NCBI GenBank assembly: GCA_963732485.1
Contig: CAVSZS010000010.1
Location: 7,573 to 71,572 of the forward strand
Direction of reading: 5' to 3'
Length of the DNA: 64,000 nt
DNA from: Candidatus Aminicenantes bacterium
GTDB lineage: Bacteria > Acidobacteriota > Aminicenantia > UBA2199
How positions within the stretch are numbered: the first letter of the stretch is position 1; the number at the start of each line of letters is the position of its first letter. A program made the position numbers and the translations under genes. Under the pieces are notes generated by a model. That model saw only the letters and a list, made by a program, of their open reading frames with translations. It was not told the DNA's origin and ran no database searches. Positions 5,174 to 47,746 of this stretch are shown piece by piece.

Positions 5174-6745
5174 TCAGGCCAACCCGACCAGGGGCAGCAG
5201 CAGGCGCAGCCCGACCCAGATCAGCAACCCGCCGGCCAGGTCGAAGAGAACGCCGGCGCGCATCATTTTTACGATGGGCACCAGTCCCGAGCCGTAGACG
5301 ATGGCATTGGGCGGAGTGGACACCGGCAGCATGAATCCCCAGCTGCAGCCCAGGATGGCGCCCAGCGCCGGCGGCACCGGGTTGATGCCGGCGGCCAGGG
5401 CCACGGAGATGACCACCGGCACGACCATGTTCGCCGCCGCGGTATTGGAGGTCGTTTCGCTGGCGATGACGGCGATGAAGATGGCCGCGAACGTGATGCC
5501 CCACAGCGATTCGGCGCCCGAAAACCGCAGCAGCGTCTGACCGATATGGTCGGCCAGGCGGGTGCTGAACATCAGGTTGCCCAGGCTCAAACCGCCGCCG
5601 AACAGCAACAGGGTTCCCCAATCGATCTCCACCGCCTGCCTCCAGGAGATGGTGAATTCCCTTTTTTTCCAGTCCACTGGCAGCAAAAAGAGCAGCACCG
5701 CCCCGACCAGCGCCGCCGCCGCCTCCGGCAGGTGCCCGGCGTACCATTTGGCGGCAAAAGCGGCCGGTCCGCAGAACACGGCCAGAAATCCCGGGATCAC
5801 CCACAAACAGACCGTCACCAGGAAAGCGGCCAGGGCGTTCTTCTGGCCGCGGCTCCAGGGGCCGAGTTTGGCCAGTTCCTGGCGCACGTACTCGCGGCTG
5901 CCCGCGATCACCGGCATCTCCGGCTTGTGCAGGACGTAGAGCATGAGGAACAGGAGCGCGTACATGGCCAGCAGCATGGGCACGGCGAAGAGCATCCACT
6001 GGAAAAAAGCGATCTTCACGCCGGTGAACTTCTCGATCATGGCCAGGCCGATCAGGTTGGGCGGAGTCCCGACCGGCGTGCCGATGCCCCCGGCCGAGGA
6101 CGCGTAGGCGGCCATCAGCATCATGCCGGTAGCGAAGCGCAAACGGGCCGGGTCGGTCTTTTTGCCGCATTTTTTTTCGAGCAGGCCCGACATGGCCGTA
6201 ATGATGCCGATGCCGATGGGCAGCATCATGGCCGTGGCGGCGGTGTTGCTGATCCACATGGAGATGAAGGCGGAGATGGCCCCATAGGCGAAAAGGATGC
6301 GCCAGGCGCGGTTCCCGATCCAGCTCATGGACATGATGGCGAAGGCGAACCGCCTGTCCAGCCCGTGGGCGCTCATGGCGCGGGCCATGATAAAGGAGCC
6401 GAGGAAAAGAAAAATCGTCGGCTCGGCGAAAGGGGCTAAAACGGTCCTGGCATCGGCGATCCCGGTCAGAATGCACAGGACGGCCCCCAGCAGGGCACTG
6501 ACCGGGATGGGGACCGGCTCGCCGATCCACCAGACGACGACCCAGGCGATGACGGCCGCCAGAGCGTGCGCTTGCGGGCTGGTCCCGGGCATGGGCAGGT
6601 GCCACACGGCCAGGCCCAGGAGTGGTCCCAGAAAGAGGCTCCCCCGCCGGCGCCAGGATTCCACCTTCTCCTCGAAAGGCGAGATCACTTCCGCCGGCTC
6701 ACCGGCAGGGACCGGGGTCGCCTCATTTCCGGGTTTGCTGTTCAT
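5174..6745 (-). CDS. DASS/SLC13 family anion:sodium symporter (dicarboxylate or sulfate permease)
   Basis: 523 aa polytopic membrane protein with duplicated hairpin-loop motifs (SNTAATAMMLPIG ... SETTSNTAAANMVVPV) typical of divalent anion:Na+ symporters. Confidence 0.75.
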   Translation of the reverse strand: MNSKPGNEATPVPAGEPAEVISPFEEKVESWRRRGSLFLGPLLGLAVWHLPMPGTSPQAHALAAVIAWVVVWWIGEPVPIPVSALLGAVLCILTGIADARTVLAPFAEPTIFLFLGSFIMARAMSAHGLDRRFAFAIMSMSWIGNRAWRILFAYGAISAFISMWISNTAATAMMLPIGIGIITAMSGLLEKKCGKKTDPARLRFATGMMLMAAYASSAGGIGTPVGTPPNLIGLAMIEKFTGVKIAFFQWMLFAVPMLLAMYALLFLMLYVLHKPEMPVIAGSREYVRQELAKLGPWSRGQKNALAAFLVTVCLWVIPGFLAVFCGPAAFAAKWYAGHLPEAAAALVGAVLLFLLPVDWKKREFTISWRQAVEIDWGTLLLFGGGLSLGNLMFSTRLADHIGQTLLRFSGAESLWGITFAAIFIAVIASETTSNTAAANMVVPVVISVALAAGINPVPPALGAILGCSWGFMLPVSTPPNAIVYGSGLVPIVKMMRAGVLFDLAGGLLIWVGLRLLLPLVGLA

Positions 6746-6759
6746 GGTGTCCGTCTCCC

Positions 6760-10044
<3,285 letters not shown>

Positions 10045-13270: not shown

Positions 13271-13978
13271 CTAGCTATCACTACCACTATCACTACCACT
13301 CTGTCTTGTATGGCTCTTGCTGACACTGACACTGACACTGATCACTGATCGGTTCGGACTTGATTTCGCTTTGATATCGGGTATTTTCTCCAAAAACAGG
13401 TATATTTCCCGGCAAACCCAGGCGTCGGTGGCGGCATACAGGATCTGGGCCGGGGCCAGCTCGAAACGTTCCCAGTTGGAGCACTGGGCCCCCTTGGAGA
13501 TGCGAAATCCCAGGAGCTGGGCCGCCAGCGTGCGCACGCCGTTGGCCTTGATCCCCTTTTTCGCCGCCATTTTTCCCAGGTCGATAAAGCCGTCCGGAGC
13601 GAAATCCATGATTTCGTGCAGTTTTTCGATGTCACCGTTCACGGCAACGCCGGTCTTGATGACGCGGTCATCAGAAAACAAAGCGTCCAACACATGCACG
13701 TGCTTCACTTTCTTCAATTGCACGAGAAATACCTTCTTTTTGCCGGCCAGCTGCAGCAACGCCGGGGAAAAATGGTCGCCCACCTTGAAGGTCGGCCGGA
13801 TCTCGATATCAAAGCCCAATATCTTTTCGGCAAGGATTTCGGGCATGGCCAAGCGCAGCTTTTCGTCGCCGTCGATGACCGTCACCGGGCCTTCGTATTT
13901 TTTCAGCGGCAGCAGGTTGATGTCGGCCTTGCTGATGACCGGAGCCGGATGCGGGCGTGAGTGGGGTTGTTGTTCCAT
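13271..13978 (-). CDS. 3'-5' exonuclease domain protein (RNase D / DnaQ-like)
   Basis: 235 aa; DEDDy-type motifs (ILGFDIEIRPTF..., YAATDAWVCREIY). C-terminal residues (SVSVSVSKS...SDSGSDS) are translation of the microsatellite at 13275-13350. Confidence 0.65.
   Translation of the reverse strand: MEQQPHSRPHPAPVISKADINLLPLKKYEGPVTVIDGDEKLRLAMPEILAEKILGFDIEIRPTFKVGDHFSPALLQLAGKKKVFLVQLKKVKHVHVLDALFSDDRVIKTGVAVNGDIEKLHEIMDFAPDGFIDLGKMAAKKGIKANGVRTLAAQLLGFRISKGAQCSNWERFELAPAQILYAATDAWVCREIYLFLEKIPDIKAKSSPNRSVISVSVSVSKSHTRQSGSDSGSDS
13275..13350. repeat. Stop-rich microsatellite block (CTATCACTACCACT x2; TGACAC/TGATCAC x5)
   Basis: ctatcactaccactatcactaccact ... ctgacactgacactgacactgatcactgatc; overlaps the 3' end of the exonuclease gene. 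Confidence 0.6.
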
Positions 13979-14004
13979 GGAGGGGTCATTGTAGCATAAG
14001 AGAA

Positions 14005-14033
14005 GTCAGTAGTCAGTAGACAGTAGTCAGTAG
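14005..14033. repeat. TCAGTAG heptamer repeat arm (agtcagtagtcagtagacagtagtcagtag)
   Basis: Period-7 repeat placing TAG in all three frames; same family as 15071, 39248, 40446, 43243. Confidence 0.65.
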
Positions 14034-14092
14034 AAAGAAAAAGGCAATAAACTGGAAATTGAAGGAAAGAGCAGGAAGGAACAAGAAAGAAA

Positions 14093-15013: not shown

Positions 15014-15070
15014 GGCGGAAGTATAGCGCAGAAAAATAAAACATGGCAAGTCAGGAAAAAAGTAGTCAGT

Positions 15071-15255
15071 AGCCAGTAGTCAGTAGTCACTAGAACAGCA
15101 GCTCAACGAGCTCTATTCTGTACAACCGCCAAGGGCCCGATCCTAAAAAAAATTTAGTCAGTAGAACAGCTAGTGCACGCTCCTACTAGCCACTGACTAT
15201 GCTCTTCCGAGATTGCTCGCTTCTACTGACTACTGGCTACTGACTACTGTCTACT
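15071..15255. repeat. MITE/BIME-like inverted-repeat element built of TCAGTAG heptamers (33-bp arms, 119-bp spacer with nested imperfect palindrome)
   Basis: Left arm agtagtcagtagccagtagtcagtagtcactag (15071-15103); right arm ctactgactactggctactgactactgtctact (15223-15255) is its reverse complement. Near-identical copy at 43243-43350. Confidence 0.7.
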
Positions 15256-15315
15256 CTCTTTCGTTTTTCCTTATTGACAGGACCGCCGATTACTGATATA
15301 TCAGATATCAGAACA

Positions 15316-18636: not shown

Positions 18637-19107
18637 CTATTCTAGTTTTTTAAAACGCTCAGCTTCCTCATAGTTACCTAAACTTTCGCAAATTTGTGCC
18701 GCTTCTTTAAAACGCCTTTCGTTTTCCAATCTAGTCAGGTAGAACAATTCAATTTCATTTTTATAAACCTGACTCCAATTATAGACACTTCCATTATGAG
18801 ATGTGCGACTATATCCGCTCAAAGCCATTTCGTAAAAACTCTTCTCTTTTCTAAGTTTTCTTATATCATTAACAATAGTTATCAAACCAACCTTGTCAAA
18901 ACAAATAATAGATGTTTTTATGCCCAGTTCCCTTTCTATTGTCGGATGATATTTTTCGGGAATATCAGAGCCATATGCAGCAAGAATTTTCCTGTTCTCA
19001 GAATTCTCTAAAAGTCCAGCTAGAGTCGAATTCATTTCTTCAGTTATTTTTCTGCAAAACTCAACATCGTCTTCAATCTTCTTAGCATTTTTCCTAAATA
19101 TGCTCAT
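18637..19107 (-). CDS. Hypothetical protein on an AT-rich (~35% GC) island; no recognizable domain
   Basis: 156 aa from ATG 19105-19107 (MSIFRKNAKKIEDDVEFCRKITEEMNSTLAGLLENS...). The longer track ORF extends into the adjacent lipoprotein gene and is trimmed. Composition differs strongly from the ~65% GC flanks. Confidence 0.45.
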   Translation of the reverse strand: MSIFRKNAKKIEDDVEFCRKITEEMNSTLAGLLENSENRKILAAYGSDIPEKYHPTIERELGIKTSIICFDKVGLITIVNDIRKLRKEKSFYEMALSGYSRTSHNGSVYNWSQVYKNEIELFYLTRLENERRFKEAAQICESLGNYEEAERFKKLE

Positions 19108-19219
19108 TAATTTAATATATAATGAAACATGAGATGTTGTCAAATTTAGATATTTTTGCGATAAACGTTGGGAAAACAGGAAGGCACGCCAACGCAGATG
19201 AATGAGTCGAGAATTAGCT

Positions 19220-19933
19220 TTATTGTTGCAGCTTAGCGAAACGTAGTGTGATCGACCCAAAGGTCTTTTCCCCTTCATCGTCCTTGACTGCGAATTGGAT
19301 ATCGATGCTTTCTCCAAGTTTTTCAACTGCATCCACATCAAGCTTCCAAGTAAGGAGCCCCGTAGTGGGATCAAGGATGATATTCTGGTCCAGGGGTGAA
19401 ACAAGCTCATAAAAAAGCATGTCGCCGTCGGGATCGCTGGCAGCCACCTTATACTGGATATTTCCGGGAACTTCAAACGCTGCCATCGGGGCCAAGTTGA
19501 GGATGGGCAGGGAATTGCGAACGCGAATGATATCGCTGCGGTGAAAGGGAGAGTCCTGCCGGCCGGCCACGACTCTGGCTTGGCAAAAGAGCCAAGCCCC
19601 TTTTTTCAGGCTGGACTTCTGCATGGTATCGCCGTTGGCCTGCTCGACCTCATGGCCGTTGATGAACCACTGGTATTGGAACTCGACGTTCTCTCTTCCG
19701 GGACTGGCCAGCACCGGCACGGCCGTGACGTCATCCAGTACGGAGGGAGCCTCAGGCGTAAGGGTGAGCGAAATGATGCGCAGGCTCGCATCACCTTTAG
19801 AAGAGACGATTGGCGCTCGCAAGGGCGCGTTTTTTTCTTGATCCAGAATCTGCTGCGCAGAGTTCGCCTTGCCTTTCGAGCAGGATAAAAAGGCCAAAAT
19901 CAGCATGAGAACACCCAGGAATGCATTCTTCAT
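19220..19933 (-). CDS. Exported lipoprotein with cadherin-like/Ig-like (He_PIG-type) domain
   Basis: Signal peptide + lipobox (LAFLSC); C-terminal LFYELVSPLDQNIILDPTTGLLTWK motif typical of putative Ig/cadherin-like domains. SD GGAGGT 8 nt upstream of ATG. Confidence 0.6.
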   Translation of the reverse strand: MKNAFLGVLMLILAFLSCSKGKANSAQQILDQEKNAPLRAPIVSSKGDASLRIISLTLTPEAPSVLDDVTAVPVLASPGRENVEFQYQWFINGHEVEQANGDTMQKSSLKKGAWLFCQARVVAGRQDSPFHRSDIIRVRNSLPILNLAPMAAFEVPGNIQYKVAASDPDGDMLFYELVSPLDQNIILDPTTGLLTWKLDVDAVEKLGESIDIQFAVKDDEGEKTFGSITLRFAKLQQ

Positions 19934-36710: not shown

Positions 36711-37957
36711 AGCGCGCCCTGACCTGCGGCTGGTTCACCCTGCAGCGCCAGGAAGCCGAGATCGCTTCCGCCATGGCCGAATTGCAGGCCCTATGCCGCG
36801 CCGCCGGGGCAACGGTGGTCGGGCAGGCCTGGCAGAAGCGCCCGGTCCCCGACCGCCGTTTCCTGGTCGGGATGGGCAAGGTAGAGGAACTCAAGCGCCT
36901 GGCCGGCGTGCACAACGCCGGGCTGGTCGTGTTCGACAATGTCCTGACCACCCTGCAGCAACGCAACCTGGAAGAGGAACTTGGGCTAAAGGTTATCGAC
37001 CGCAGCCGCCTGATCCTTGACATCTTCGCCTCCCGCGCCCGCAGCCAGGAGGGCAAGCTCCAGGTCGAGCTGGCCCAGCTGCTCTACCTGCTGCCGCGCC
37101 TGACCGGCAAGGGCGTTTCACTCTCGCGCCTCGGCGGCGGCATCGGCACGCGCGGCCCCGGCGAAAGCAAGCTGGAGACCGACCGCCGGCAGATCAAGGT
37201 CAAGATCACCCGCATCCGCCAGAAGCTGAAGGGAGTGACGCGCAACCGCGACCTGCAGCGCCAGAACCGCCGCGCGCTGCCCGTGCCCCTGGTGGCCCTG
37301 GTCGGCTACACCTCGGCCGGCAAATCGACCCTGTTCAAGGCCCTCACCGGCGAAAACGTCTTCATCTCCGACCAGCTGTTCGCCACCCTCGATCCCCTGC
37401 TGCGCCGCGTCGACCTGCATGATTCCCACCCCGGTTATTATTTCATCCTATCCGATACCGTGGGCTTCATCCGCGACATGCCCGCCGAGTTGTTCACCTC
37501 CTTCACCGCCACCCTGGAAGAAGTGCGCCAGGCCGACCTGGTGCTGCACGTGGTCGACATGACCAACCCCGACTGGCAGGGGCAGAAGGCCGAGGTGGAG
37601 AAGGTCCTGCGCCAGATGGCCGTCGACGCTGCCAGGCTGGTCGTGGTTTTTAACAAGATCGACCTCTGCGCCGACGGCGAGAGCCTGGGCGACAGGGGCG
37701 AGCCCGGCCAGGTATACGTCTCCGCCACCCGCGGCACCGGCCTGGCGACGCTGAAAGAGGAAATCTTCAAGCGCTATTTTTCCGATTACGGTGCCTATAC
37801 CGTAGACGTGGAAGACGAGCAGCAATTGGACGCCCTGAGCCGCTGGGCCATCGTGCTGGAAAAGAACCGCGTCGAGAACGGCTACCAGGCCGCGGTTTTA
37901 TGTTCGCTGGAAAAAATGCTACAATTCAGGGAATCTCACGGAGGTGTGATCCGATGA
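36701..37957 (+). CDS. hflX: GTPase HflX
   Basis: HflX N-domain (GKVEELKRL...), G-domain [31 protein letters not shown]; 10-nt overlap with miaA; no hfq between. Confidence 0.85.
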
Positions 37958-39252
37958 AAGCGATCCTGCCGGCAGCGCTCATCCTGTTTTTCGTCGCCTG
38001 CGGCGGCGTGAAGCCCGTCACTGTCGATTTCCATCTCCCGGCCGTCGAGAGCGGCACATTCCTCGACTCGTACTATCGCCTGGGCTGGGAGCAGCTGCGC
38101 CAGGGCGACAGCGAGTCCGCCTACCGCTCCTTCCAGCTCAGTGAAGCGCCGCTGGACAAGAAGCAGGCCGCGTTCGGCTACGTTTTCCTGGCGCGCAAGA
38201 AATTCAGCGCCGCCGCCGACCAGTTCGCCAACTCATTGGCGACCAATCCCGGCAACATCGAGGCCGGCATGGGCCAGGCCATGATCCTGGAACTCGAGGG
38301 GCGCATGGCCGAAGCCTACCGCGCTTACGGCGACCTGGCGCTCAAGGCCGCCGATGACGCCTGGATCAAGCTGAAATACGAGTCGATCCGCTCGAGTTCC
38401 ACCCAGGGCCACCTGCTGGAGGCGGAGCGCGTGAAAGCCACTGACAAGGGCAAGTATATCCGCGAGCTGGAGCAGGCGGCCTTCTTTTCCCCCGATCTGG
38501 CCGCCATCACCCTGCAGATCGCCGACCATTACTACAATGAAGGCGACTGGCGGCGCAGCCTGCCGTATTACGAAGCCGTTCAGGAAAAAGAGCCGTACAA
38601 CGAGGCCGTGCTGCTGAAGCTGGCGGCGCTCTATGAAAAGAAGGAAAATTTCGACCTGGCCATCGTCACCCTGGACCGCCTGCTGGCGCTGAAAGCCGGT
38701 GACCCCTTCCTGGAAGCCGAGAAGCAGCGGGTACGCGAACGCTTCCAGGAGCTGACCCTGCCCGAAAAGTTCAAGAAGATATTCTTCAAGGCCGAGATCA
38801 ACCGCGAAGAACTGGCGGCGCTGGTCGGCTTTTATTTCGAGCGCCATATCGCGCTCGACCTGGCCCCGGAGATCCTCACCGACATCGACGGCTCGTTCGC
38901 CCGTGAGCAGATCATCAAGACCGTGACCGCCGGCATCATGCATGCCCGCCCCGACCACACCTTCCAGCGCTTCGCCGCCCCCGACCGCGCCGCCTTCGCC
39001 GCCACGCTGAACGCCCTGATCGATTACCTGAAGGGCAAGGGGCGCGAACTGCGCTTCACGCCGCTGTCGCCGGCCCCGCTCATCGCCGACCTCTCGCCGC
39101 TGCACAAGGATTTCCAGGGCATCTCCTCGCTGGTCAATTCCCAGGTGCTGGCGCTCGACAGCCAGGGCAATTTCAACCCCACAGACCCCGTCGCCCCCGG
39201 CGAGGTCATTACCGCTCTCAAGAAGATCTTGAACGCAATAGAGAATCAGTAG
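37954..39252 (+). CDS. TPR-repeat lipoprotein
   Basis: [18 protein letters not shown] (lipobox FVAC), multiple TPR-like repeats; ATGA overlap with hflX stop. Confidence 0.6.
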
Positions 39253-39289
39253 CTAGTAGTTAGTAGATAGTAGTTAGTAGACTGTAGGA
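39248..39289. repeat. Heptamer repeat arm (TAGTAG family: cagtagctagtagttagtagatagtagttagtagactgtagg)
   Basis: Inverted partner at 40446-40478; the pair brackets the lower-GC gene 39543-40226. Confidence 0.65.
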
Positions 39290-39542
39290 AGGCACTAGAC
39301 GATTTCGAAGAAAGAATTATTTGTAGGGAAAATTGACCTGCTCCCATTACTTCATTCCCTCCGATGTAATAATGAAAGACCTGATCCCAATGCCACGTGA
39401 CCCCAATCCCACACGAGGGCGCAAACCATCCTGGTAAAACCTGGGGATGAGCCCTAAGCTCCATTCTTGACTTTTGGATGCCCCCGGCATACCATCAGGA
39501 TTGAAATACGTAGCCCGTCTGACACAGCACGAGGAACTCATC

Positions 39543-40226
39543 ATGATCAAAACCTATTCATGGGTCGCCCTATGGATCACCCTGATGACGGCCGGTCTGG
39601 CCGCAAGCAAAAAGCCGGCGGTCATCTCTCTAAAAGATTTCACATCCGTGAAAGAATGGGTCCTGGAAATCACCTGGCATGCCAAGGACAACTTCGAAGA
39701 CAGTGACTTCAGCGCCAAGCTGGACATGAGCGCTAGCGCCCGGTTTTACCTCAAAAGACTGGATCATCAGGACGCCTGGGGCCGCTGGGAAGTCCAAAAA
39801 CTGCAGACATCAAATCTGGTCTACAAGGCAAACCTCATCGACAAGCGCAGGGGCCAAGGCCTCGATTACCAAGGGCTTTCGACCCCGCCCCTCATGTCGG
39901 TGGCCAATTTCCAGGTGGGCGGGGAAACCCCGGGCTACCAATTGGCCTGCCAAGTGATGTTCCCGGCTCAGGTAAAAGGCCCCCCCCTGGGCAGCATGGA
40001 CTCTCCCCTGATGCTCACGACCACCCAAATGGGGCCTAAACCCGTTTTTTGCACAGGCCCCCTTCCAGAATCCGGCACCACCATCTCCGGCAGCGCCGTC
40101 ATCCAAGCTGCCGTCACACCCTTCGGCACCAGCCGGGCACCGCAAACCCGAGTTGGGATTCAGTATGTCCTTAAGCCATACATCGAGCTGGCGCCCCTTA
40201 CCCCACTCAAAAAACCCAAGCGTTGA
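39543..40226 (+). CDS. Hypothetical secreted protein (signal peptide, no known domain), lower GC (~50%) than flanks
   Basis: MIKTYSWVALWITLMTAGLAASKKP...; bracketed by inverted heptamer-repeat arms at 39248 and 40446. Confidence 0.5.
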   Translation: MIKTYSWVALWITLMTAGLAASKKPAVISLKDFTSVKEWVLEITWHAKDNFEDSDFSAKLDMSASARFYLKRLDHQDAWGRWEVQKLQTSNLVYKANLIDKRRGQGLDYQGLSTPPLMSVANFQVGGETPGYQLACQVMFPAQVKGPPLGSMDSPLMLTTTQMGPKPVFCTGPLPESGTTISGSAVIQAAVTPFGTSRAPQTRVGIQYVLKPYIELAPLTPLKKPKR

Positions 40227-40445
40227 GACCTGTCTTTTCGAAGAGCCTAAGGAACACCGGGGTCACGTCTCCAGATTCCAGAAATCAGCATCTCGATTCA
40301 CCTCGGTATTTCATCCCCAGCATTTCTCCAATCTCACGTAAACCTAGAGCCGTGTGTTTCCGCAGCCGATGCATGAACATTCTCGATAGTGCAACAATCG
40401 ATGAAAATTGACAATTTATAATACCTAGTTCGTTCAGTCCCTCTT

Positions 40446-40478
40446 CTACTGACTACTGACTACTGACTACTGACTACT
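40446..40478. repeat. CTACTGA heptamer repeat arm (x4.5), reverse orientation of TCAGTAG
   Basis: ctactgactactgactactgactactgactact. Confidence 0.65.
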
Positions 40479-40518
40479 TTCTTCCTGCAATCTGCCGCTG
40501 GACGCGGCAAGCGGTTTG

Positions 40519-40527
40519 TGGTATAAT
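40519..40527 (+). promoter_or_regulatory. Extended -10 promoter element (TGgTATAAT) ~140 nt upstream of deaD
   Basis: tgtggTATAATtcag; implies a long 5' UTR as in cold-shock DEAD-box helicase genes. Confidence 0.4.
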
Positions 40528-40669
40528 TCAGATTAAGTTGGCAATTGATCGCCCGGAAAAGGACACGAATTCCCCGAACCTGAAACAACGACCGTCCCCT
40601 TTGGCGCGCTCGCTCCCCGATCGAATCCCGGCTTGTAGGCGCGCCTGAGGCTTACTAAAGGAGAACACC

Positions 40670-42379
40670 TTGCATAAATTACTTTTTTCGGCTTCCGACC
40701 TGCCCGAAGACATCAAGAAAGCGCTGGCGGAAATGGGCTTCGAGGAGGCCACCCCCATCCAGTCGCTGGCCATCCCCGCCGCCCGCCAGGGCCGCGATAT
40801 CATCGGCCAGGCCCAGACCGGCACCGGCAAGACCGCGGCCTTCGGCATCCCGCTGCTGGAAAAGATCGATGTCCAGCAGCGCCATATCCAGGCGCTGGTC
40901 CTCTGCCCCACCCGCGAGCTGGCCATCCAGGTCGCCGAGGAGTTCAAGCGCCTGGGCGCCTACAAGCGCAAGCTGGGGATCGTGCCCGTCTATGGCGGCC
41001 AGCCCATCGAACGCCAGCTGCAGGCGCTGCGCAAGGGGGCGCAGGTCGTCGTCGGCACCCCGGGGCGGGTCATGGACCATCTGCAGCGCGGCACCATCGC
41101 CCTCGACCGCCTGCAGCTGCTCGTCCTCGACGAAGCCGACGAAATGCTCAACATGGGCTTCATCGAGGATATCGAGACCATCCTCAAGACCGTCCCCGCC
41201 AGCCGCCAGACGCTGCTGTTCGCGGCCACCATGCCGGCGCCGATCCTGGCCATCACCAAGCGCTACCTGAAGGACCCGCAGCTGCTGTCGGTGGTCCACG
41301 AGCAGTTGACCGTTCCCAACATCGAGCAGGCCTACGTGGAGGTCCGGGAACAGCAAAAACTTGAGGCCCTCTCGCGCCTCCTCGATACGCTGAACACCGA
41401 GCTGTCGCTGGTTTTCTGCAATACCAAGAAGCGCGTCGACGAGGTCGTCGCCGCCCTCAACACCCGAGGCTACCAGGCCGAGGGGCTGCATGGCGACCTG
41501 AACCAAATCCAGCGCGACCGGGTGATGAACCACTTCCGCAAGGGTGACTTCGCCATCCTGGTCGCCACCGACGTCGCCGCCCGCGGCATCGACGTCAGCG
41601 GCATCGACGTCGTCTTCAACTACGACCTGCCCTGGGACGAGGAAGACTATGTCCATCGCATCGGCCGCACCGCCCGGGCCGGCAAGAGCGGCCGCTCCTA
41701 TACCTTCGTCAGCAACCGCGACCTGCGCAAGCTGCGCGATATCCAGCGCTTCACCGGCACCCATATCCGCCGCCAGCAGATCCCCTCACTGCGCGACGTC
41801 GAGGTTTCCCGCCAGGAGGCCTTTATCGAGAAGGTCAACGGCATTCTCGAAGGCGGCCTTGCCGACCGCCATCTGCGCCTGGCTGAGCGCCTGCTCAGCG
41901 GCGACACCCCGTCGCTCGATGTGACCGCCGCCCTGGTCGGCCTGCTGATCGGCCCGGAACCGGCGCCGGCAACGGAAGACATGAGCAATCTCCGCGAAAG
42001 CGAGGACGACGGCAGCCGCGTGACGGTGATAGCGGCGGTCGGCCGCGAGCACCGGGTCTCCCCCGGCGACATCGTCGGCGCCATTACCGGCGAGACCGGG
42101 TTGACCGGCAAGTCCATCGGCGCCATCCGCATATTCGACCACGTCAGCTTCATCGACATCCCGACCAACACCGCCCAGCGTGTGATCGAGATCATGAACC
42201 GCAGCACCATCCGCAACGTCGCCCCCGAGATGCGCCTGGCCGAGGCCAACGAGATGCCCGTCAGCGCGAAAAAGAGGCCTGGCAAGCCGGGCGCGGCGCC
42301 GGAGCGGCGTATTTACGACAAGAAGCCCTTCGCCAAAACGGGCGCGAAAAAGTTCAAAAAGAAATACGCCCACGGCTGA
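40670..42379 (+). CDS. deaD: DEAD-box ATP-dependent RNA helicase (DeaD/CsdA-like) with DbpA-type C-terminal RNA-binding domain
   Basis: TTG start with AAGGAG 7 nt upstream; Q-motif, AQTGTGKT, PTRELA, DEAD, SAT, HRIGRTARAG; C-terminal DbpA domain and basic tail. Confidence 0.85.
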   Translation: MHKLLFSASDLPEDIKKALAEMGFEEATPIQSLAIPAARQGRDIIGQAQTGTGKTAAFGIPLLEKIDVQQRHIQALVLCPTRELAIQVAEEFKRLGAYKRKLGIVPVYGGQPIERQLQALRKGAQVVVGTPGRVMDHLQRGTIALDRLQLLVLDEADEMLNMGFIEDIETILKTVPASRQTLLFAATMPAPILAITKRYLKDPQLLSVVHEQLTVPNIEQAYVEVREQQKLEALSRLLDTLNTELSLVFCNTKKRVDEVVAALNTRGYQAEGLHGDLNQIQRDRVMNHFRKGDFAILVATDVAARGIDVSGIDVVFNYDLPWDEEDYVHRIGRTARAGKSGRSYTFVSNRDLRKLRDIQRFTGTHIRRQQIPSLRDVEVSRQEAFIEKVNGILEGGLADRHLRLAERLLSGDTPSLDVTAALVGLLIGPEPAPATEDMSNLRESEDDGSRVTVIAAVGREHRVSPGDIVGAITGETGLTGKSIGAIRIFDHVSFIDIPTNTAQRVIEIMNRSTIRNVAPEMRLAEANEMPVSAKKRPGKPGAAPERRIYDKKPFAKTGAKKFKKKYAHG

Positions 42380-42401
42380 ACCGACCGGGCCAAGGCAGCA
42401 C

Positions 42402-42440
42402 GGGTAAAAAAAAAGGGCGGCTTTTTCGGCCGCCCTTCCG
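42402..42440 (-). terminator. Rho-independent terminator between convergent deaD and Met-rich gene (strong for minus strand, hairpin shared)
   Basis: Minus-strand transcript AAGGGCGGC-cgaaaaa-GCCGCCCTT followed by TTTTTTTTTACC. Confidence 0.7.
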
Positions 42441-42461
42441 TAAAAAACTCTTGATTTTCGC

Positions 42462-43184
42462 TTATTTTCCGCGCATGTCGTCCATGGAGAGGGTTTTCTG
42501 CTTGCTGAAGCCGACGGGCACGGAATAGGTTCCGGCCGGGGCGGGCTTCTGGGAGATCTCCACGACCTGGCTGGCTACGCGCATCTTGCTGCCCATCATG
42601 TCCATGGACATTTCCGAAGCCACCTGGAAGCCGGCGATCTTGGCGAACTCGGCGATGGCCGCGTCGTCCATGAACTGCATCTTGGAGACGTTGCTGTACA
42701 TCTTGGTGAATATTCTCCAGTCAAAGGGCACGTCGGTGGAGGCCCAGACCTTCATCTTCATCTGCATCATCATCATGTTCATGTCCACGTCATAGCCGGC
42801 GCAGTTCCACTGGCTGATCCTCTTGGTCTGGCCATTGGCATTGACCTTGACCGTCACCTTCATCATGTTGGCCATGGAGGCGGCTTCCGGGGGCAGGAGC
42901 TTGGTCATATCCAGCGGCAGGGCCGTTTCCACGTAGTTCTTGTCCTTCAGGTTGACGACATACATGAGCTTCTTGGTCATGTCCATGATCATCACCCTGT
43001 CGCCGGTCCTGTTGGCCAGCTGATTGTTGTTCAGCCACTGCTCGGTCACTTCGTCCTTGGCAGGCTGGTTCTGGCCCATCATGGAGAAGGCGTCGGTGTG
43101 GACGTTGGTCTTGATATACACGTCGGCGGGCAGCAGCAGCGCTATTGCCAGGACGACAATCACCATAAATAATGCTTTTTTCAT
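42462..43184 (-). CDS. Methionine-rich (~12% Met) secreted/periplasmic protein, DUF4412-like; possible Cu(I)-binding or Met-sink protein
   Basis: Signal peptide MKKALFMVIVVLAIALLLPA; Met clusters MNMMMMQMKMK, MSMDMMGSKM, MANMMK. Confidence 0.55.
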   Translation of the reverse strand: MKKALFMVIVVLAIALLLPADVYIKTNVHTDAFSMMGQNQPAKDEVTEQWLNNNQLANRTGDRVMIMDMTKKLMYVVNLKDKNYVETALPLDMTKLLPPEAASMANMMKVTVKVNANGQTKRISQWNCAGYDVDMNMMMMQMKMKVWASTDVPFDWRIFTKMYSNVSKMQFMDDAAIAEFAKIAGFQVASEMSMDMMGSKMRVASQVVEISQKPAPAGTYSVPVGFSKQKTLSMDDMRGK

Positions 43185-43242
43185 GATTCCTCCTTGAGAA
43201 CGGAAATCATAGCCCCGGGAGCTGGTTTTGTCAAGAAGGAGA

Positions 43243-43350
43243 GTAGTCAGTAGCCAGTAGTTAGTAGTCAGTAGAACGACAAAGAATTGGACTGTACACT
43301 TGCATTTCGTCCAGTTCTCGCAACTACTGTCTACTGACTACTGACTACTT
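43243..43350. repeat. Second copy of the MITE/BIME-like TCAGTAG inverted-repeat element (33-bp arms, 49-bp spacer)
   Basis: agtagtcagtagccagtagttagtagtcagtag ... ctactgtctactgactactgactact; left arm differs by ~2 nt from 15071-15103. Confidence 0.7.
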
Positions 43351-43482
43351 TTCCTGCTTTGAAACTTTTTGCCCTTTTCATGCGTATTATATTTGGAAGA
43401 AGAAGGAAGGGTTGGCTTCGTACCCCCCCTCTCCCTCCTGAAGGCCTATTGCTTCCTTCTTCTTCCATTCATTCCGACCTCA

Positions 43483-43700
43483 GTGAAAAGTGATTAGTGA
43501 AAAGTGATTTGTAAGAGCCAAACAAAAATCCCTTCGATCTCCTATCTGAACTAAGTGAAAAGTGATTAGTGAAAAGTGATTTGTCAAAACCAAAGAGCAA
43601 CTACTTCGATCACCAGCACGATTGAAATTTATTCTGTTTGATTGCCGCTTCTCTCTACTTTTTACTTTTCACTTTTCACTTTTCACTAATTCTTTGCTTT
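43483..43700. repeat. Tandem ~70-bp duplication each containing GTGAAAAGTGATTA x2, plus inverted partner CTTTTCACTTTTCACTTTTCACTAAT
   Basis: Copies at ~43483-43545 and ~43554-43615; inverted arm 43655-43700; stop codons in all six frames. Confidence 0.65.
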
Positions 43701-43710
43701 CGACGCTCTC

Positions 43711-43740
43711 TTGACACCCATTCGTCATTCCCCCATAATC
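43711..43740 (+). promoter_or_regulatory. queF promoter; predicted leaderless or near-leaderless transcript
   Basis: TTGACA (43711-43716) - 18 nt - CATAAT (43735-43740); ATG at 43746 only 5 nt downstream; no SD. Confidence 0.5.
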
Positions 43741-43745
43741 GGACC

Positions 43746-44147
43746 ATGAAAATAGAAGACATTACGAAATACCTGCAATCCATCCGCCAGGACGCTTTTT
43801 TCATCGACTACGACGTGCTGGAGACCGAGCCCTTCGACAACAAGGACAAGGAAACCAAGGTGGAGATCGTCAATCCCGAGTTCACCTCGCTCTGCCCGCG
43901 CACCGGCCTTCCCGATTACGGCACCATCCGCATCCGCTACACCCCGGAAAAACTGATCGTCGAATTGAAATCCCTCAAGTATTATTTCCTGCAATACCGC
44001 AACGCCGGCATATTCTACGAAAGCCTGTGCAAGCTGATCCTCAAGCACCTGGTCAAGAAAGTGCATCCCGTCGAGATGACGGTCGAGGCCGAGTTCACGC
44101 CCCGGGGCGGGTTGACGACCAAGGTCATTTCGAGCTACAAGAAATAA
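43746..44147 (+). CDS. queF: NADPH-dependent 7-cyano-7-deazaguanine reductase
   Basis: 133 aa; QueF signature EFTSLCPRTGLPDYGTIRIRY (Cys nucleophile). Confidence 0.85.
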   Translation: MKIEDITKYLQSIRQDAFFIDYDVLETEPFDNKDKETKVEIVNPEFTSLCPRTGLPDYGTIRIRYTPEKLIVELKSLKYYFLQYRNAGIFYESLCKLILKHLVKKVHPVEMTVEAEFTPRGGLTTKVISSYKK

Positions 44148-44320
44148 GAATCCGTAATTCGTAATTCGTAAACCGTAATTCGAGAAGAGTTGTTATTGCG
44201 GACTACAAGAAATAAGAATCCGTAAATCGTAATTCGTAAGCTGTAATTCGAGAAGAAATGTTTTTTGCTCGCGTGTTTTTCTTTTCTTCCGAATCACTAA
44301 TCACGAATTACGAATCACTT
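44135..44320. repeat. Tandem 68-bp duplication spanning the last codons of queF (CGTAATT heptamers) plus inverted partner
   Basis: ctacaagaaataagaatccgtaattcgtaattcgtaaaccgtaattcgagaaga (44135-44188) and 90%-identical copy (44203-44256); inverted arm cgaatcactaatcacgaattacgaatcac (44288-44320). Confidence 0.65.
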
Positions 44321-44331
44321 AGTTCCTATCA

Positions 44332-45975
44332 TTAAAGCTCCCTCGCCATCCACGCTTTCCTGCCGCGGCGATAGTAATACGCGATCAGGACGGCGTTGAA
44401 CAGGAGAAAGCCGGCGAACCAGGCGCTGATCTCGGCATAGGGAACGGCCTGGCGGGTGAAGCGCTGCCAGTAGAAGAGCCCCACCGGCCGCACCAGCATG
44501 AGAATGCCGCCGACCAGGTAGATCATGCTCCAGAGCATATAGGAGATGCCCTGCTTGGAGACGATCACGTGCTCGGGCGACAGCGGGTTGGTCTCGTTGG
44601 TCTCGATGCCCAGCACCAGGGAAAGGACGGTCAGGAAGACGATGGCCGGAGTCAGGAAGAACAGGGCCATGACGCGCGTGAAGGCGTCGAAATGCAGGGC
44701 CAGGTCGCCCAGGGCGTAGAGAGCGAAGCCGACGAACAGCAGCGGCAGCAGATGGAACAGGAGTTTGAAGCGGTAGAATTTCAACTTGTCGACAGGTGAG
44801 CTGAAGATGTGGACCTGCCCGGGGCCCTCGCCGGGGATGGAGGTGAAGGTGAAGCGCGAGTTCAAGCCGGAGACGATGAAGACCGCCATGATCAGATTCA
44901 GGTAGGAAACAAAATTCTTTACCGACGGATGCGGCAGGGGAATCATTTTCATGTTGATGACGAAAACGGCAACCAGGGCGCCGACGATGAGCAGCTGCGA
45001 CCATTGCGCCGGCGTGCGCAGGAAAGTCTTGATCTCCTTGCGCAGCAGCGGCCGGTAGCCGCCCCGGGGGTCCAGCGGTCGCCAGCGCGACTTGTAGTAG
45101 CCCTTGCCGCCCCGGTTCAGTTTGTCGAACAGCTGCAGGTAGAACTTTTTGCGCAGCCAGACAACCAGCGCCAGCAGGGCGGCGACCAGCATGACGAAAA
45201 GGCCGATGGTCTTCCAGAAGGGAACGCTGCGGCCATCGGCGCTCAGGCTCATCGCCCTGGCCAGCCATGAGAATGGGAAATAATAGAAGACCTTCAGGTC
45301 CAGGGAGCCCATGTATTTCAGCACATTGTCGATTTCGCTCGGTTCCAGAAACCGCTCGGGCCGCAGCAGCCGCAGAAAGACCACGATGGAGGAGATCAGG
45401 ATGATGGAAAACACCGAGAGCACCGGCTGCAGGCGGCGCACCGAAAAAAAAGCCGGGATGATCAGCCCGAGCGCGATCCCGGCCAGTACCCCGCAGGCGA
45501 TGAAAAGCAGGAAGGCCAGCAGCACCTGCATGACCTGGCCGAATCCGGGAGCGAAATAACGGCAATAGAAAAAGAGGATCGGCAGCGAAAAGAAAACCAC
45601 CATGGCCGAGCTGTAGGTCGTGGTCTCCAGCATTTTCCAGGCAAAGGCGCTGCGGATCGGCAGGGGCGTGGAAAAGAGGAAATGCAGGTCGCGCGATATG
45701 AAGAACACGTCGAGCGCGGTCAGCAGCGCCGAGAGCAGCAGCATGGAAAACAGGGTCATGAAGATCATCATCAGCAGCTTTTCGGCCAGGAACACCCTGA
45801 AGACCCGGGGAAACTCCTGGACCTGCGCCAGGTAGCCGAAAATCTTGTAGAAGAAAAATCCGAGCACCAGCATGAAAAAAATCCCCAGCAGCAGGAACAG
45901 GATGTATTTTTTCTTTTCGCCGCGCACCAGGGCGTTGCGCAGCTGATGATATTTAAGCTTCAGCAGACTTTTCAT
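44332..45975 (-). CDS. Polytopic membrane protein, putative ABC-2-type exporter permease
   Basis: 547 aa, ~12 TM helices; 23-nt overlap with upstream ABC ATPase gene. Confidence 0.55.
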   Translation of the reverse strand: MKSLLKLKYHQLRNALVRGEKKKYILFLLLGIFFMLVLGFFFYKIFGYLAQVQEFPRVFRVFLAEKLLMMIFMTLFSMLLLSALLTALDVFFISRDLHFLFSTPLPIRSAFAWKMLETTTYSSAMVVFFSLPILFFYCRYFAPGFGQVMQVLLAFLLFIACGVLAGIALGLIIPAFFSVRRLQPVLSVFSIILISSIVVFLRLLRPERFLEPSEIDNVLKYMGSLDLKVFYYFPFSWLARAMSLSADGRSVPFWKTIGLFVMLVAALLALVVWLRKKFYLQLFDKLNRGGKGYYKSRWRPLDPRGGYRPLLRKEIKTFLRTPAQWSQLLIVGALVAVFVINMKMIPLPHPSVKNFVSYLNLIMAVFIVSGLNSRFTFTSIPGEGPGQVHIFSSPVDKLKFYRFKLLFHLLPLLFVGFALYALGDLALHFDAFTRVMALFFLTPAIVFLTVLSLVLGIETNETNPLSPEHVIVSKQGISYMLWSMIYLVGGILMLVRPVGLFYWQRFTRQAVPYAEISAWFAGFLLFNAVLIAYYYRRGRKAWMAREL

Positions 45976-46690: not shown

Positions 46691-46855
46691 ACGGGCATTG
46701 TAGCATATCGAAGAATAAAGCGAACTACGTGACGCGTGACGCGCCCGGTTGCCGCATCGTTGTTGACAAATTTGTTTCCGTGTGGGAACCTCCAACCTTG
46801 AAAGGAGGAGCCGAATGGCGTTACATGAGTCATGTTCATATTTCGGGTTAACTCA

Positions 46856-47746
46856 ATGCCCCAGATGAAAAACTTTCTTTTCTTCTGTTTGCTGCTTTTG
46901 GAAACCGCCGCTTTTCTTTCTGCTACAATAAAGCATGAATTTCAACTTGCGCTGCACTACTCTATGCCCTTTTTTGATTATCAATTTCAGAATAACGTTC
47001 AACCCCACTTGCTATATAGCGATCCCCTCAGCTCTTCATCAAAACAGACCTTGAACTTCAATGAGCAAAATCAAATACAATTCTCCATGGCCTATAATCT
47101 TTTTTTCTCATCCCGGAACGGAATGCAGATAAAATTCACTGCCGGTTCTGGTCGCTTGGATGGTGAAAATTCCGATGTTGCCCTTAGCCTTGATTATATT
47201 GGCCACCAGCCGCCCTCCTATGAACCGAAGGAAACCCACTACCAGGATGCTCTGGCATGGCCTGCAACTGAAGGAAAAGTCACGCATACTGCTTTAAGCC
47301 TTAATTATCTGCACAGTTTTCAGCTCCATAACGCCTTGCAGTTAAGGACATCAGCCGGATTTTCCCTTGCCAGCCAATCACTTAATTTCAAGTATCTTGC
47401 GTATACCGGATTCATTTTAGGCGGCCACTCCGTTTTATTTGTGGACACCTATATGCTTGAAGCTTTGGGTAAAAATATTGTCCAGCCGGGAATAAACGGT
47501 TCCCTGCAACTGGTTATTAAACTCTCTTCCCGGATCTCGTTTTTATTTGATTCAGAAATTATTCTTACTCCTTTGCGAAATATTTCATTGCAAATTTCCG
47601 ATCAGGCACTGTTATATCCAGACACTCCCATAACGTTAACCCGGGATAATTTGCAGGAAATAAACACGAGCATGCCAGTAGCTCCCTTAAAATATAATGG
47701 TTCCAGATGCAGCGCGAATTTTGGCCTGCTGATCAAATTAAATTAA
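46856..47746 (+). CDS. Hypothetical exported protein, possibly outer-membrane beta-barrel; AT-rich (~42% GC) island
   Basis: Signal peptide MPQMKNFLFFCLLLLETAAFLSA (alternative start ATG 46865); alternating amphipathic beta-strand pattern; low GC vs flanks. A 17-codon uORF with perfect AAAGGAGG SD (46815-46868) ends in ATGA at 46865. Confidence 0.45.
   Translation: MPQMKNFLFFCLLLLETAAFLSATIKHEFQLALHYSMPFFDYQFQNNVQPHLLYSDPLSSSSKQTLNFNEQNQIQFSMAYNLFFSSRNGMQIKFTAGSGRLDGENSDVALSLDYIGHQPPSYEPKETHYQDALAWPATEGKVTHTALSLNYLHSFQLHNALQLRTSAGFSLASQSLNFKYLAYTGFILGGHSVLFVDTYMLEALGKNIVQPGINGSLQLVIKLSSRISFLFDSEIILTPLRNISLQISDQALLYPDTPITLTRDNLQEINTSMPVAPLKYNGSRCSANFGLLIKLN

Follow-up and report, generated by a model that had tools for sequence, protein, structure and literature searches.

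Miniature inverted-repeat transposable elements (MITEs) and elements of the Correia/ERIC type are about 110-200 bp long, carry terminal inverted repeats (TIRs) of about 30 bp and occur in multiple intergenic copies. In cyanobacteria, STRR heptamers and SDR elements embedded in them have reportedly been described by Mazel in 1990 and Elhai in 2008. Intergenic heptamer repeats of the TAACTGA type occur in Beggiatoaceae, cyanobacteria and Bacteroidetes, and in the BOGUAY genome 169 sets of them are direct and only one is inverted (PMC4679880). Repetitive extragenic palindromes (REPs), BIMEs and REPINs are multi-copy extragenic palindromes (PMC3116915, PMC3733652, PMC1525189), and REPs are documented insertion hot spots for insertion sequence (IS) elements (PMC1525189). 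The TIRYTs or TIRtrons represent subclass 2.1 of the TnpA(REP)-like Y1 transposases, with a Bac_DnaA_C/helix-turn-helix (HTH) tail and TIRs tipped by GGGGWSAS (PMC3733652, PMC6006769). The locus compared here with these systems is the junction between a tetratricopeptide repeat (TPR) lipoprotein gene and deaD in a 64-kb stretch of Candidatus Aminicenantes bacterium DNA (contig CAVSZS010000010.1, positions 7,573 to 71,572, hereafter the window), where a gene for a predicted secreted protein lies between two inverted arrays of heptamers. Literature searches on the array sequences and on intergenic repeats of Aminicenantes returned nothing relevant in the library searched, where no report of such arrays in Aminicenantes was found. 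The arrays had originally been predicted to delimit a mobilisable cassette; the evidence set out below makes it probable that the gene arrived by an insertion, associated with a TIRYT, into the loop of a heptamer-array palindrome that was already resident.

Tandem Repeats Finder (TRF), a pattern scan of the window and inspection of the sequence place both arrays, mutually inverted, where they had been predicted, with a single gene (39543-40226) between them and the TPR lipoprotein gene and deaD as neighbours. The left array (39248-39287, plus strand) reads AGTAGCT AGTAGTT AGTAGAT AGTAGTT AGTAGAC TGTAG, about 5.7 units of an imperfect AGTAGNN (period 7, 4.7 copies and 88% matches by TRF), and the right array (40446-40478) is (CTACTGA)x4.7 with 100% matches in TRF. 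One array is the reverse complement of the other (AGTAGTC versus GACTACT; best ungapped complementarity 0.82). If up to one mismatch is allowed, TAGTAGNTAGTAG has six occurrences in the window, where shuffling predicts 0.02. Folded, the arms give stems about 26-33 bp long whose outer flanks are A-rich and T-rich; on the right side, arm and conserved outer flank TTCTTCC together cover 40446-40485 (plus strand). As read from the sequence, every heptamer contains a stop codon and the 7-nt period places stops in all three frames. The start of the left array overlaps the final sense codon and the TAG stop (39250-39252) of the TPR lipoprotein gene. Downstream of the right array, after about 20 bp, come a promoter-like site (TGGACG-17-TG-TATAAT) and the deaD leader. 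Orthologous left arms are present in L006, L008, L009, L010, L013, L017 and L042, and orthologous right arms in L006, L008, L009, L012, L017 and L042.

The relation between arms and gene becomes apparent in the relatives. Orthologous TPR junctions were taken from genomes and metagenomes, most of the comparison loci being metagenome contigs, and the genome records nearest to the window were CAWGGP010000009.1, an Aminicenantes metagenome-assembled genome (MAG), and a MAG named 'Acidobacteria bacterium'. Four orthologous TPR-deaD junctions (L008, L006, L009 and L042), which span four lineages with 82-98% nucleotide identity in the TPR gene, are empty: both arms are present, 78-118 bp apart, with no gene between them. 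In L008, whose TPR gene and hflX are 97.4-98.9% identical to the window at the nucleotide level (97.4-98.6% for the TPR gene), the loop measures 78 bp, as it does in L042, a 24.9-kb contig with the full synteny TPR-palindrome-deaD-DUF4412-queF; it measures about 106 bp in L006 and 112 bp in L009, where the right neighbour is a different, convergent gene for a putative lipoprotein of 302 aa. The same gene with the same internal structure fills the site in three independent assemblies, namely the window, L012 (a JGI contig with the left arm truncated to 11 nt) and L017, a 45.8-kb ENA contig with the synteny miaA-hflX-TPR-gene-deaD-DUF4412-queF, whose indel-type errors, the sole indication, point to a long-read-type assembly. 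An identical protein is also encoded on one Logan contig of 1374 bp. The gene-bearing unit is thus polymorphic among relatives, as would be expected of an acquisition. The original prediction had, however, anticipated empty sites with a single repeat arm, and since both arms are kept at the empty sites they must be considered resident, the gene being a presence/absence polymorphism inside the loop.

A third content of the loop was encountered in L013, where the left arm is followed by 25 bp, the TIR GGGGTCAGGTCTCCAGATTCCAGAAATCA and a minus-strand gene ending in a Bac_DnaA_C HTH; this is the C-terminal part of a TIRYT transposase gene that runs past the contig end. Three further junctions have no AGTAG palindrome: in L011 the TPR stop and deaD are separated by 40 bp, L041 carries other heptamers (CTTTTGC, CCCTCAC), and in L043 deaD is absent. 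In all palindrome-bearing genomes (the window, L006, L008, L012, L013, L017 and L042) the TPR gene takes its stop codon from the first heptamer of the array, and in L011 the C-terminus of the TPR protein differs (…SIGE*, TPR end at 6290).

The boundaries of the insert lie inside the loop. A 10-bp direct repeat, GAAAATTGAC, is found on the same strand at 39328-39337 and 40403-40412, exactly twice in the window against 0.18 expected, and the empty site of L042 has a single GAAAATCAAT at the matching place; pair and single copy together bound an insert of about 1065 bp (39338-40402) that is absent from the four relatives. What remains on either side is homologous to the empty-site loops and corresponds to the ancestral loop: its left part (39288-39337) by BLASTN and MAFFT against L008, L009, L010 and L042, and its right part (40403-40445), which begins with the right GAAAATTGAC copy and continues with agttcgttcagtccctctt. 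The 9-bp repeat TTTCGAAGA (39303-39311 and 40236-40244) was also weighed as a possible target-site duplication but dismissed, the ancestral spacer continuing past its left copy and not past its right one. No inverted repeats of a DDE transposon were seen by eye at the ends of the 1065-bp insert.

The signatures of mobile DNA are TIRYT ends located between the arrays and the gene, remnants on which the original prediction was silent. To the right of the gene, a TIR of 29 bp, TIR-B (40259-40287, plus strand, GGGGTCACGTCTCCAGATTCCAGAAATCA), starts with GGGGTCAC, points its tip at the gene, matches exactly the TIR pattern of L013 and L015, is unique at full length in the window and corresponds to the 3' TIR of a TIRYT element. 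It adjoins the decayed 3' end of a TIRYT transposase gene (40288 to about 40395, minus strand) with an internal deletion of about 110 bp, whose HTH remnant is 80% identical over 30 aa to the Bac_DnaA_C protein of L013 (tblastn, E=1e-10) and 89-91% identical to L013 in nucleotides on either side of the deletion (BLASTN). To the left of the gene, TIR-A (39363-39404, minus strand, tip towards the gene, read on that strand as GGGATCAGGTCTTTCATTATTACATC) corresponds to the 5' TIR of a Y1 (TIRYT) element. Its first tip, at 39388, is mutated to GGGATCAGG, and a second tip, GGGGTCACG, ending at 39404, stems from a 16-bp tandem duplication (TRF repeat 39382-39412). The 9-mer tip by itself is not statistically compelling (three copies in the window against 1.44 expected); TIR-A is credible because in L012 an intact GGGGTCAGG tip is followed, 46 nt on, by the first 37 codons of a Y1 transposase (MARPLRIEFPGAVYPITSRGNERKKIYLNDHDREIF), 50% identical to the Y1 domain of L015 (tblastn, E=3e-7). 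Both TIR-B and, with its GGGGTCAGG end as in L012, TIR-A have the GGGGWSAS-type tip of TIRYTs.

The intact family is represented by L015, with Y1_Tnp (PF01797) and Bac_DnaA_C between TIRs of 30 bp, an arrangement of which L013 also shows parts, and the sharply defined TIRYT group in the literature comes from Acidobacteria, as does, by its name, the relative L007 (Acidobacteria bacterium). The copy in the window is a decayed member: only about 30-45 codons of the Bac_DnaA_C end are left, no intact open reading frame (ORF) with Y1_Tnp and HTH is present, and a tblastn search of the window with the Y1 domain found no Y1 gene. It also differs from a normal element in that the two tips face the passenger gene rather than enclosing a transposase. 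The order is Y1 5' end and TIR tip, gene, TIR tip and HTH 3' end, which is a circular permutation of the normal element.

These observations bear directly on the proposal that the heptamer arrays are attC-like or TIR-like recombination sites that delimit and mobilise a one-gene cassette. In its favour, the inverted arms bracket exactly one intact gene, two other arm pairs in the window also bracket genes (two tRNAs with GntR, and queF), and synteny or nucleotide identity shifts exactly at the arms in L009, L012 and L017. Yet both arms persist at empty sites, the insert ends at the 10-bp direct repeat within the loop, arm pairs devoid of cargo occur elsewhere in the window, and homologues of the gene are found elsewhere without arrays. 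Likewise, no integrase, recombinase (IntI-type included) or transposase domain was found by Pfam in the 29 window ORFs tested (13-57 kb), and no attC core sites (RYYYAAC / GTTRRRY) are visible in the arms on inspection. Integron cassettes do offer a parallel in being single, mostly orphan genes with imperfect inverted repeats and in showing presence/absence polymorphism at a fixed site; here, by contrast, repeats stand on both sides and persist without the gene, the limits of the insert are not at the repeats, and the gene has its own promoter-like site. The unit is not an integron gene cassette, and any mobilising role of the arrays is very unlikely.

The inserted gene (39543-40226, plus strand) encodes a predicted secreted all-beta protein of 227 aa from a conserved, unannotated family. 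The N-terminus is a hydrophobic, signal-peptide-like segment, the AlphaFold2 model is all-beta with a pLDDT of 86.9, and the family numbers 28 homologues (43-98% identity), with 21 invariant residues in the alignment. In agreement with the absence of recognisable domains noted at the outset, Pfam and NCBIfam scans of the product gave no match, and comparison with the PDB gave no convincing one. A promoter-like site (TTGACT-17-TACCAT, 39467-39495, plus strand), with hexamers that are by eye common to the upstream region of the L001 homologue, and a likely ribosome-binding site (GAGGA, 39531-39535) precede the gene. The GC content of the gene is lower than that of its neighbours, as had been proposed, although the contrast was overstated: it amounts to 57.3% (not about 50%) against 62.8% in the TPR gene, 65.5% in deaD and 60.5% in the window (not a background of about 65%), the whole unit 39248-40478 having 52.3%. 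GC at third codon positions (GC3), which had been suggested as a check, is atypical, with 69.7% against 85.7% in the TPR gene and 88.8% in deaD.

Elsewhere the family has other neighbours. The L001 and L002 homologues (about 86-88% amino acid identity) follow the aconitase small subunit gene and have a PD40-like gene and an ABC ATPase gene immediately after them, the L003 homologue follows aconitase_C, the L004 homologue follows recQ and the L005 homologue is near a PD40-like gene. Nucleotide homology between the window and L001 is restricted to 39488-40211 (85%), and a search of the window detected neither a paralogue nor a PD40 partner of the gene. Taken with the low GC3, these contexts and the extent of homology indicate that a single gene, promoter included, was probably moved here from the operon in which it usually stands. 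The idea of arms and gene travelling as one was considered and ruled out, no heptamer arrays being found around the homologues in L001-L005 and L018. In L018, a 71%-identical homologue, a tip-like motif GGGGTCAC occurs 330 bp downstream of the stop, just before the contig end (1207-1263), and many of the homologue-bearing contigs are only 0.9-1.3 kb long; both hint that the family is often flanked by assembly-breaking repeats.

Empty and filled junctions, atypical GC3 and homologues in unrelated contexts thus sustain the original view of an acquired insertion. A different reading of the same alleles is that the gene and transposon remnants are ancestral and that the empty sites arose by deletion, stimulated by the palindrome or mediated by the 10-bp repeat. 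Long palindromes and short direct repeats promote deletion, the GAAAATTGAC repeats could mediate an exact loss, and deletions are evident at this very locus (the left arm of L012 reduced to 11 nt, about 110 bp missing within the HTH remnant). This reading has to accommodate, however, empty sites in four lineages that differ as widely as noted above, an insert with transposon ends and atypical GC3, a gene family whose conserved neighbourhood (PD40, ABC) is elsewhere, and the low divergence of the insert, which is, like the deaD side, 96-98.5% identical among the window, L012 and L017 and diverges only 1.5-3% between lineages whose TPR genes differ by 7-17%. Deletion as the source of the empty sites is in our judgement unlikely.

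The flanks of the filled sites are mosaic. On the left side of the palindrome L017 is 83-95% identical to the window and L012 82-88%, whereas on the right side the values rise to 94-99% and 94-99.6%; L008 is 98-99% identical on the TPR side and yet empty. The jumps in identity at the locus place a recombination breakpoint at the palindrome, where breaks of synteny also fall in L009, L041 and L043. Synteny after the TPR gene breaks at or after the palindrome, at 1592-2500 in L009, 4797-5126 in L041 and 4595-5486 in L043.

The course of events that we favour would thus start from a non-coding intergenic palindrome typical of this Candidatus Aminicenantes lineage, composed of an A-rich flank, (AGTAGTC)n, a loop of about 50-135 bp, (GACTACT)n and a T-rich flank. 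The loop of the TPR-deaD palindrome would then, in an ancestor of the window genome, have received a foreign segment of about 1.07 kb, which brought the promoter-bearing gene between the 5' and 3' ends of one or more TIRYT-type Y1 (HUH) transposons, since decayed, and left the 10-bp duplication GAAAATTGAC. Delivery was most likely by TIRYT-associated mobilisation. The permuted order may reflect a gene caught between two tandem elements, or a circularised element with its gene that re-integrated, with later deletions in either case. The filled allele would then have spread among diverged strains by homologous recombination, the palindrome marking the breakpoint.

Several points weigh against this account. 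Gain is not proven, in that an ancestral insert could just as well have been lost precisely by way of the 10-bp direct repeat. We know of no HUH Y1 transposase that produces target-site duplications, and for that reason the 10-bp repeat misfits a simple TIRYT transposition. TIR-A and TIR-B have only their first 12 nt in common (with one mismatch in the window), so that the remnants may stem from different elements, and either the tandem or the circular model needs several later deletions. The homology of the spacers is short and diverged, and the limits of the insert are good only to a few to tens of bases. Finally, repeats can cause chimeric joins in metagenome contigs, to which it can be replied that the junction in L012 is not within a repeat and that L017, from its error pattern, looks like a long-read-type assembly.

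The palindrome at the TPR-deaD junction is one of several in the window, which has seven AGTAG-type arms at four loci as well as arrays of other heptamer flavours. TRF and the pattern scan identified a single AGTAGTC arm (14001-14033) and two AGTAGTC/CTACTGA pairs without cargo (15061-15093 with 15223-15255, and 43242-43274 with 43324-43349); among the other flavours, an AGTGAAA/AGTGATT array (43482-43589) faces ACTTTTC (43654-43687) and a CGTAATT array (44149-44250) faces CGAATCA (44290-44318). Period-7 arrays are reported by TRF at 14004, 15061, 15223, 39248, 40446, 43242, 43323, 43553, 43657, 44149 and 44290. The 7-nt units are head to tail and, on the ORF map, all arrays are intergenic or touch only a stop codon; they occur in convergent, divergent and co-directional intergenic regions, mostly outside predicted promoters, and several palindromes stand upstream of both divergent promoters. 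AGTAG-type pairs all have the AGTAG-type arm in front. Inverted pairs are 36-136 nt apart and lie mostly upstream of predicted promoters, five of the seven arms read CTACTGA towards the adjacent gene start, and by inspection the palindrome often reaches outward (CAGGAAAAA...TTTTTCCTG) and slightly inward (GAACGGCRCTNNACGA...TCGTTSAG). RNA folding of the pairs gives long hairpins (z-scores -5 to -9).

The array loci at large extend over 15052-15265, 43236-43356, 43482-43690, 44149-44325, 13275-13348 and 14001-14033, and include hexamer arrays (CTACCA, CTGACA). The lone AGTAGTC arm at 14001-14033 is 22 nt upstream of a 3'-5' exonuclease gene and adjoins tRNA-Glu and tRNA-Gln. Two long-range pairs enclose genes: 13999-14035 with 15221-15257 (1185 nt apart) encloses two tRNA genes and the GntR gene, and 43548-43581 with 44292-44325 (710 nt apart) encloses queF. 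A 68-bp tandem duplication at 44135-44270 copies the last queF codons (ctacaagaaataa) with the adjoining CGTAATT array.

The palindrome between the DUF4412 gene and queF permits a comparison of arms across genomes, since it occupies the same place between conserved flanks with heptamers that differ by genome: AGTGAAA/AGTGATT in the window (43482-43690) and in L042 (7905-8050), AGTGACA/AGTAACG in L017 (7975-8175) and GGCGCAA/GGTGCAA in L043 (5770-5900). The corresponding region of L006 (9313-9372) has no palindrome. Complementarity between arms is 0.72-0.87 within a locus versus 0.45-0.78 across flavours. The queF-upstream palindromes have therefore undergone a structure-conserving turnover in which the arms co-evolve and complementarity is kept while the sequence changes. 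This conservation of complementarity and not of sequence argues against a sequence-specific binding protein and favours selection for a hairpin or cruciform, or concerted evolution through slippage and hairpin-templated correction. The arms probably lengthen and shorten by replication slippage of the 7-nt unit, and their complementarity may be maintained by either of these routes. Upstream of queF there is also a conserved hairpin of about 77 nt (GGAAGAAGAAGGAAG...GGCTTCGTACC.CCCTC.CCCTCCTGAA...CTTCCTTCTTCTTCC), at 43393-43469 in the window and present in five of five genomes (L017 about 7895-7968, L042 about 7820-7893, L043 about 5697-5770 and, in the genome without heptamer arrays, L006 about 9238-9313). 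It has no Rfam match above threshold; conceivable roles are those of a small RNA, a terminator or some other regulatory element.

The arrays may also be regarded as functional RNA or DNA signals that regulate the bracketed gene by long-range pairing of the arms, whether they act as terminators or insulators in both directions, as RNase III stems or as arrays to which some protein binds. The length of the stems with their A-rich and T-rich outer flanks, the complementarity that is retained as sequences change and the stop codons in all frames speak for such signals, as does the presence of related (CTACTGA)n arrays just upstream of start codons in IMG/VR contigs, similar to the TAACTGA repeats of Beggiatoaceae (PMC4679880). 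A simple terminator scan of 39000-40800, on the other hand, found none, and an Rfam scan of 38900-44500 (E up to 1) yielded only chance matches of miRNA-like hairpins below the gathering thresholds. Moreover, those palindromes upstream of both divergent promoters lie where no transcript is expected, and the differences in heptamers between strains at one locus count against a sequence-specific binding protein. Such signalling would be compatible with an insertion into a resident palindrome, and we give it a small but real chance. The palindromes would, as far as their placement suggests, sit outside transcription units, between gene ends and promoters.

On sequence, the TAACTGA repeat seems to be the closest relative of these arrays. 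Both consist of tandem intergenic 7-nt units with an ACTGA core (CTACTGA versus TAACTGA) and stops in every frame, and both have a patchy phylogenetic distribution. (AGTAGTC)n/(CTACTGA)n arrays, the longest of about 12 units, were also found in 22 IMG/VR contigs (L019-L040) classed as viral, with a GC content of 49-66%; in the contigs inspected they are mostly in one orientation, between co-directional genes and a few bases upstream of start codons, as described for TAACTGA. Several of these contigs have multiple arrays, and L030 and L031 are among the few that form tight hairpin pairs. The arrays of the window, unlike the TAACTGA repeats, come in complementary, inverted and co-varying pairs, with several heptamer flavours side by side. 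Inverted pairing and arm covariation are not part of the published description of TAACTGA.

The likeness to REPs and REPINs is one of architecture. The palindromes are multi-copy, intergenic and outside coding regions, with two inverted units around a short spacer that fold as a hairpin; GTAG, which tags the largest super-family of REPs, is part of the heptamer, and mobile DNA inserts into the element, as with the TIRYT DNA in the loops of L013 and the window. Unlike a self-complementary REP of 20-40 bp, however, each arm is a tandem 7-nt array that is not palindromic in itself, GTAG recurs in every heptamer and not as one tag per unit, and the heptamers vary between loci and between strains. 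No REP-associated tyrosine transposase (RAYT) gene flanked by heptamer arrays was found in the window, and the TIRYT in the loop has unrelated TIRs of its own (GGGGTCA TIRs in L013 and L015). With MITEs and Correia/ERIC-type elements the palindromes have in common a length of about 110-200 bp, TIR-like arms of about 30 bp, the lack of an ORF, several copies and partly conserved inner flanks (GAACGGCRCTNNACGA...TCGTTSAG); they differ in having arms made of simple-sequence repeats whose length varies, and an autonomous partner sharing their ends did not come to light. A target-site duplication cannot be made out around the palindromes because the outer flanks CAGGAAAAA / TTTTTCCTG belong to the palindrome.

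As for the neighbouring genes, the TPR lipoprotein gene (37900-39252, plus strand, likely start ATG 37951; Pfam TPR_19/TPR_16) has 97 orthologues across Aminicenantes, and on the other side the promoter-like site (40499-40527), the conserved 5' leader and deaD itself (40670-42379), together 40499-42379 on the plus strand, are conserved in L006, L012, L017 and L042. Downstream of deaD, the DUF4412 gene (42462-43184, minus strand) is a second gene for a small secreted protein, with a GC content of 56%, low GC at first and second codon positions and a normal GC3 of 87%. Two ORFs, at 18637-19476 (minus strand; GC 38%, GC3 39%) and 46832-47746 (plus strand; GC 42%, GC3 45%), gave no significant Pfam match; they are far more deviant in composition than the gene flagged here and are likely recent foreign acquisitions.

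A broader proposal may be considered, namely that the heptamer palindromes are a previously undescribed, lineage-specific class of self-maintaining hairpins that serve as landing pads for single-strand (HUH/Y1) transposons and their passenger genes. The loop may repeatedly capture foreign DNA and seed recombination between strains, and the GTAG arms may play the part that REPs play for RAYTs. Three loop contents at one locus, the breaks at the arms and the arm covariation are compatible with this proposal and none of them demonstrates it; we hold it to be quite improbable.

For the annotation of these genomes, it follows that the unit should not be labelled an integron-like cassette but, at the level of probability given above, a pair of resident hairpin repeats between which a transposon-associated insertion brought in the gene. 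The arrays probably break short-read assemblies, as the many homologue contigs of 0.9-1.3 kb suggest, and they mark recombination and synteny breakpoints, which matters for the quality of Aminicenantes MAGs and for strain-level analysis. To our knowledge, TIRYT mobility and cargo capture have never been demonstrated, and TIRYT ends flanking a passenger gene, together with empty and filled alleles at 98% flank identity, provide a concrete test case for both. In turn, heptamer-array palindromes in an uncultured phylum offer a natural case for how palindromes persist, whether by slippage and hairpin-templated correction or by selection.

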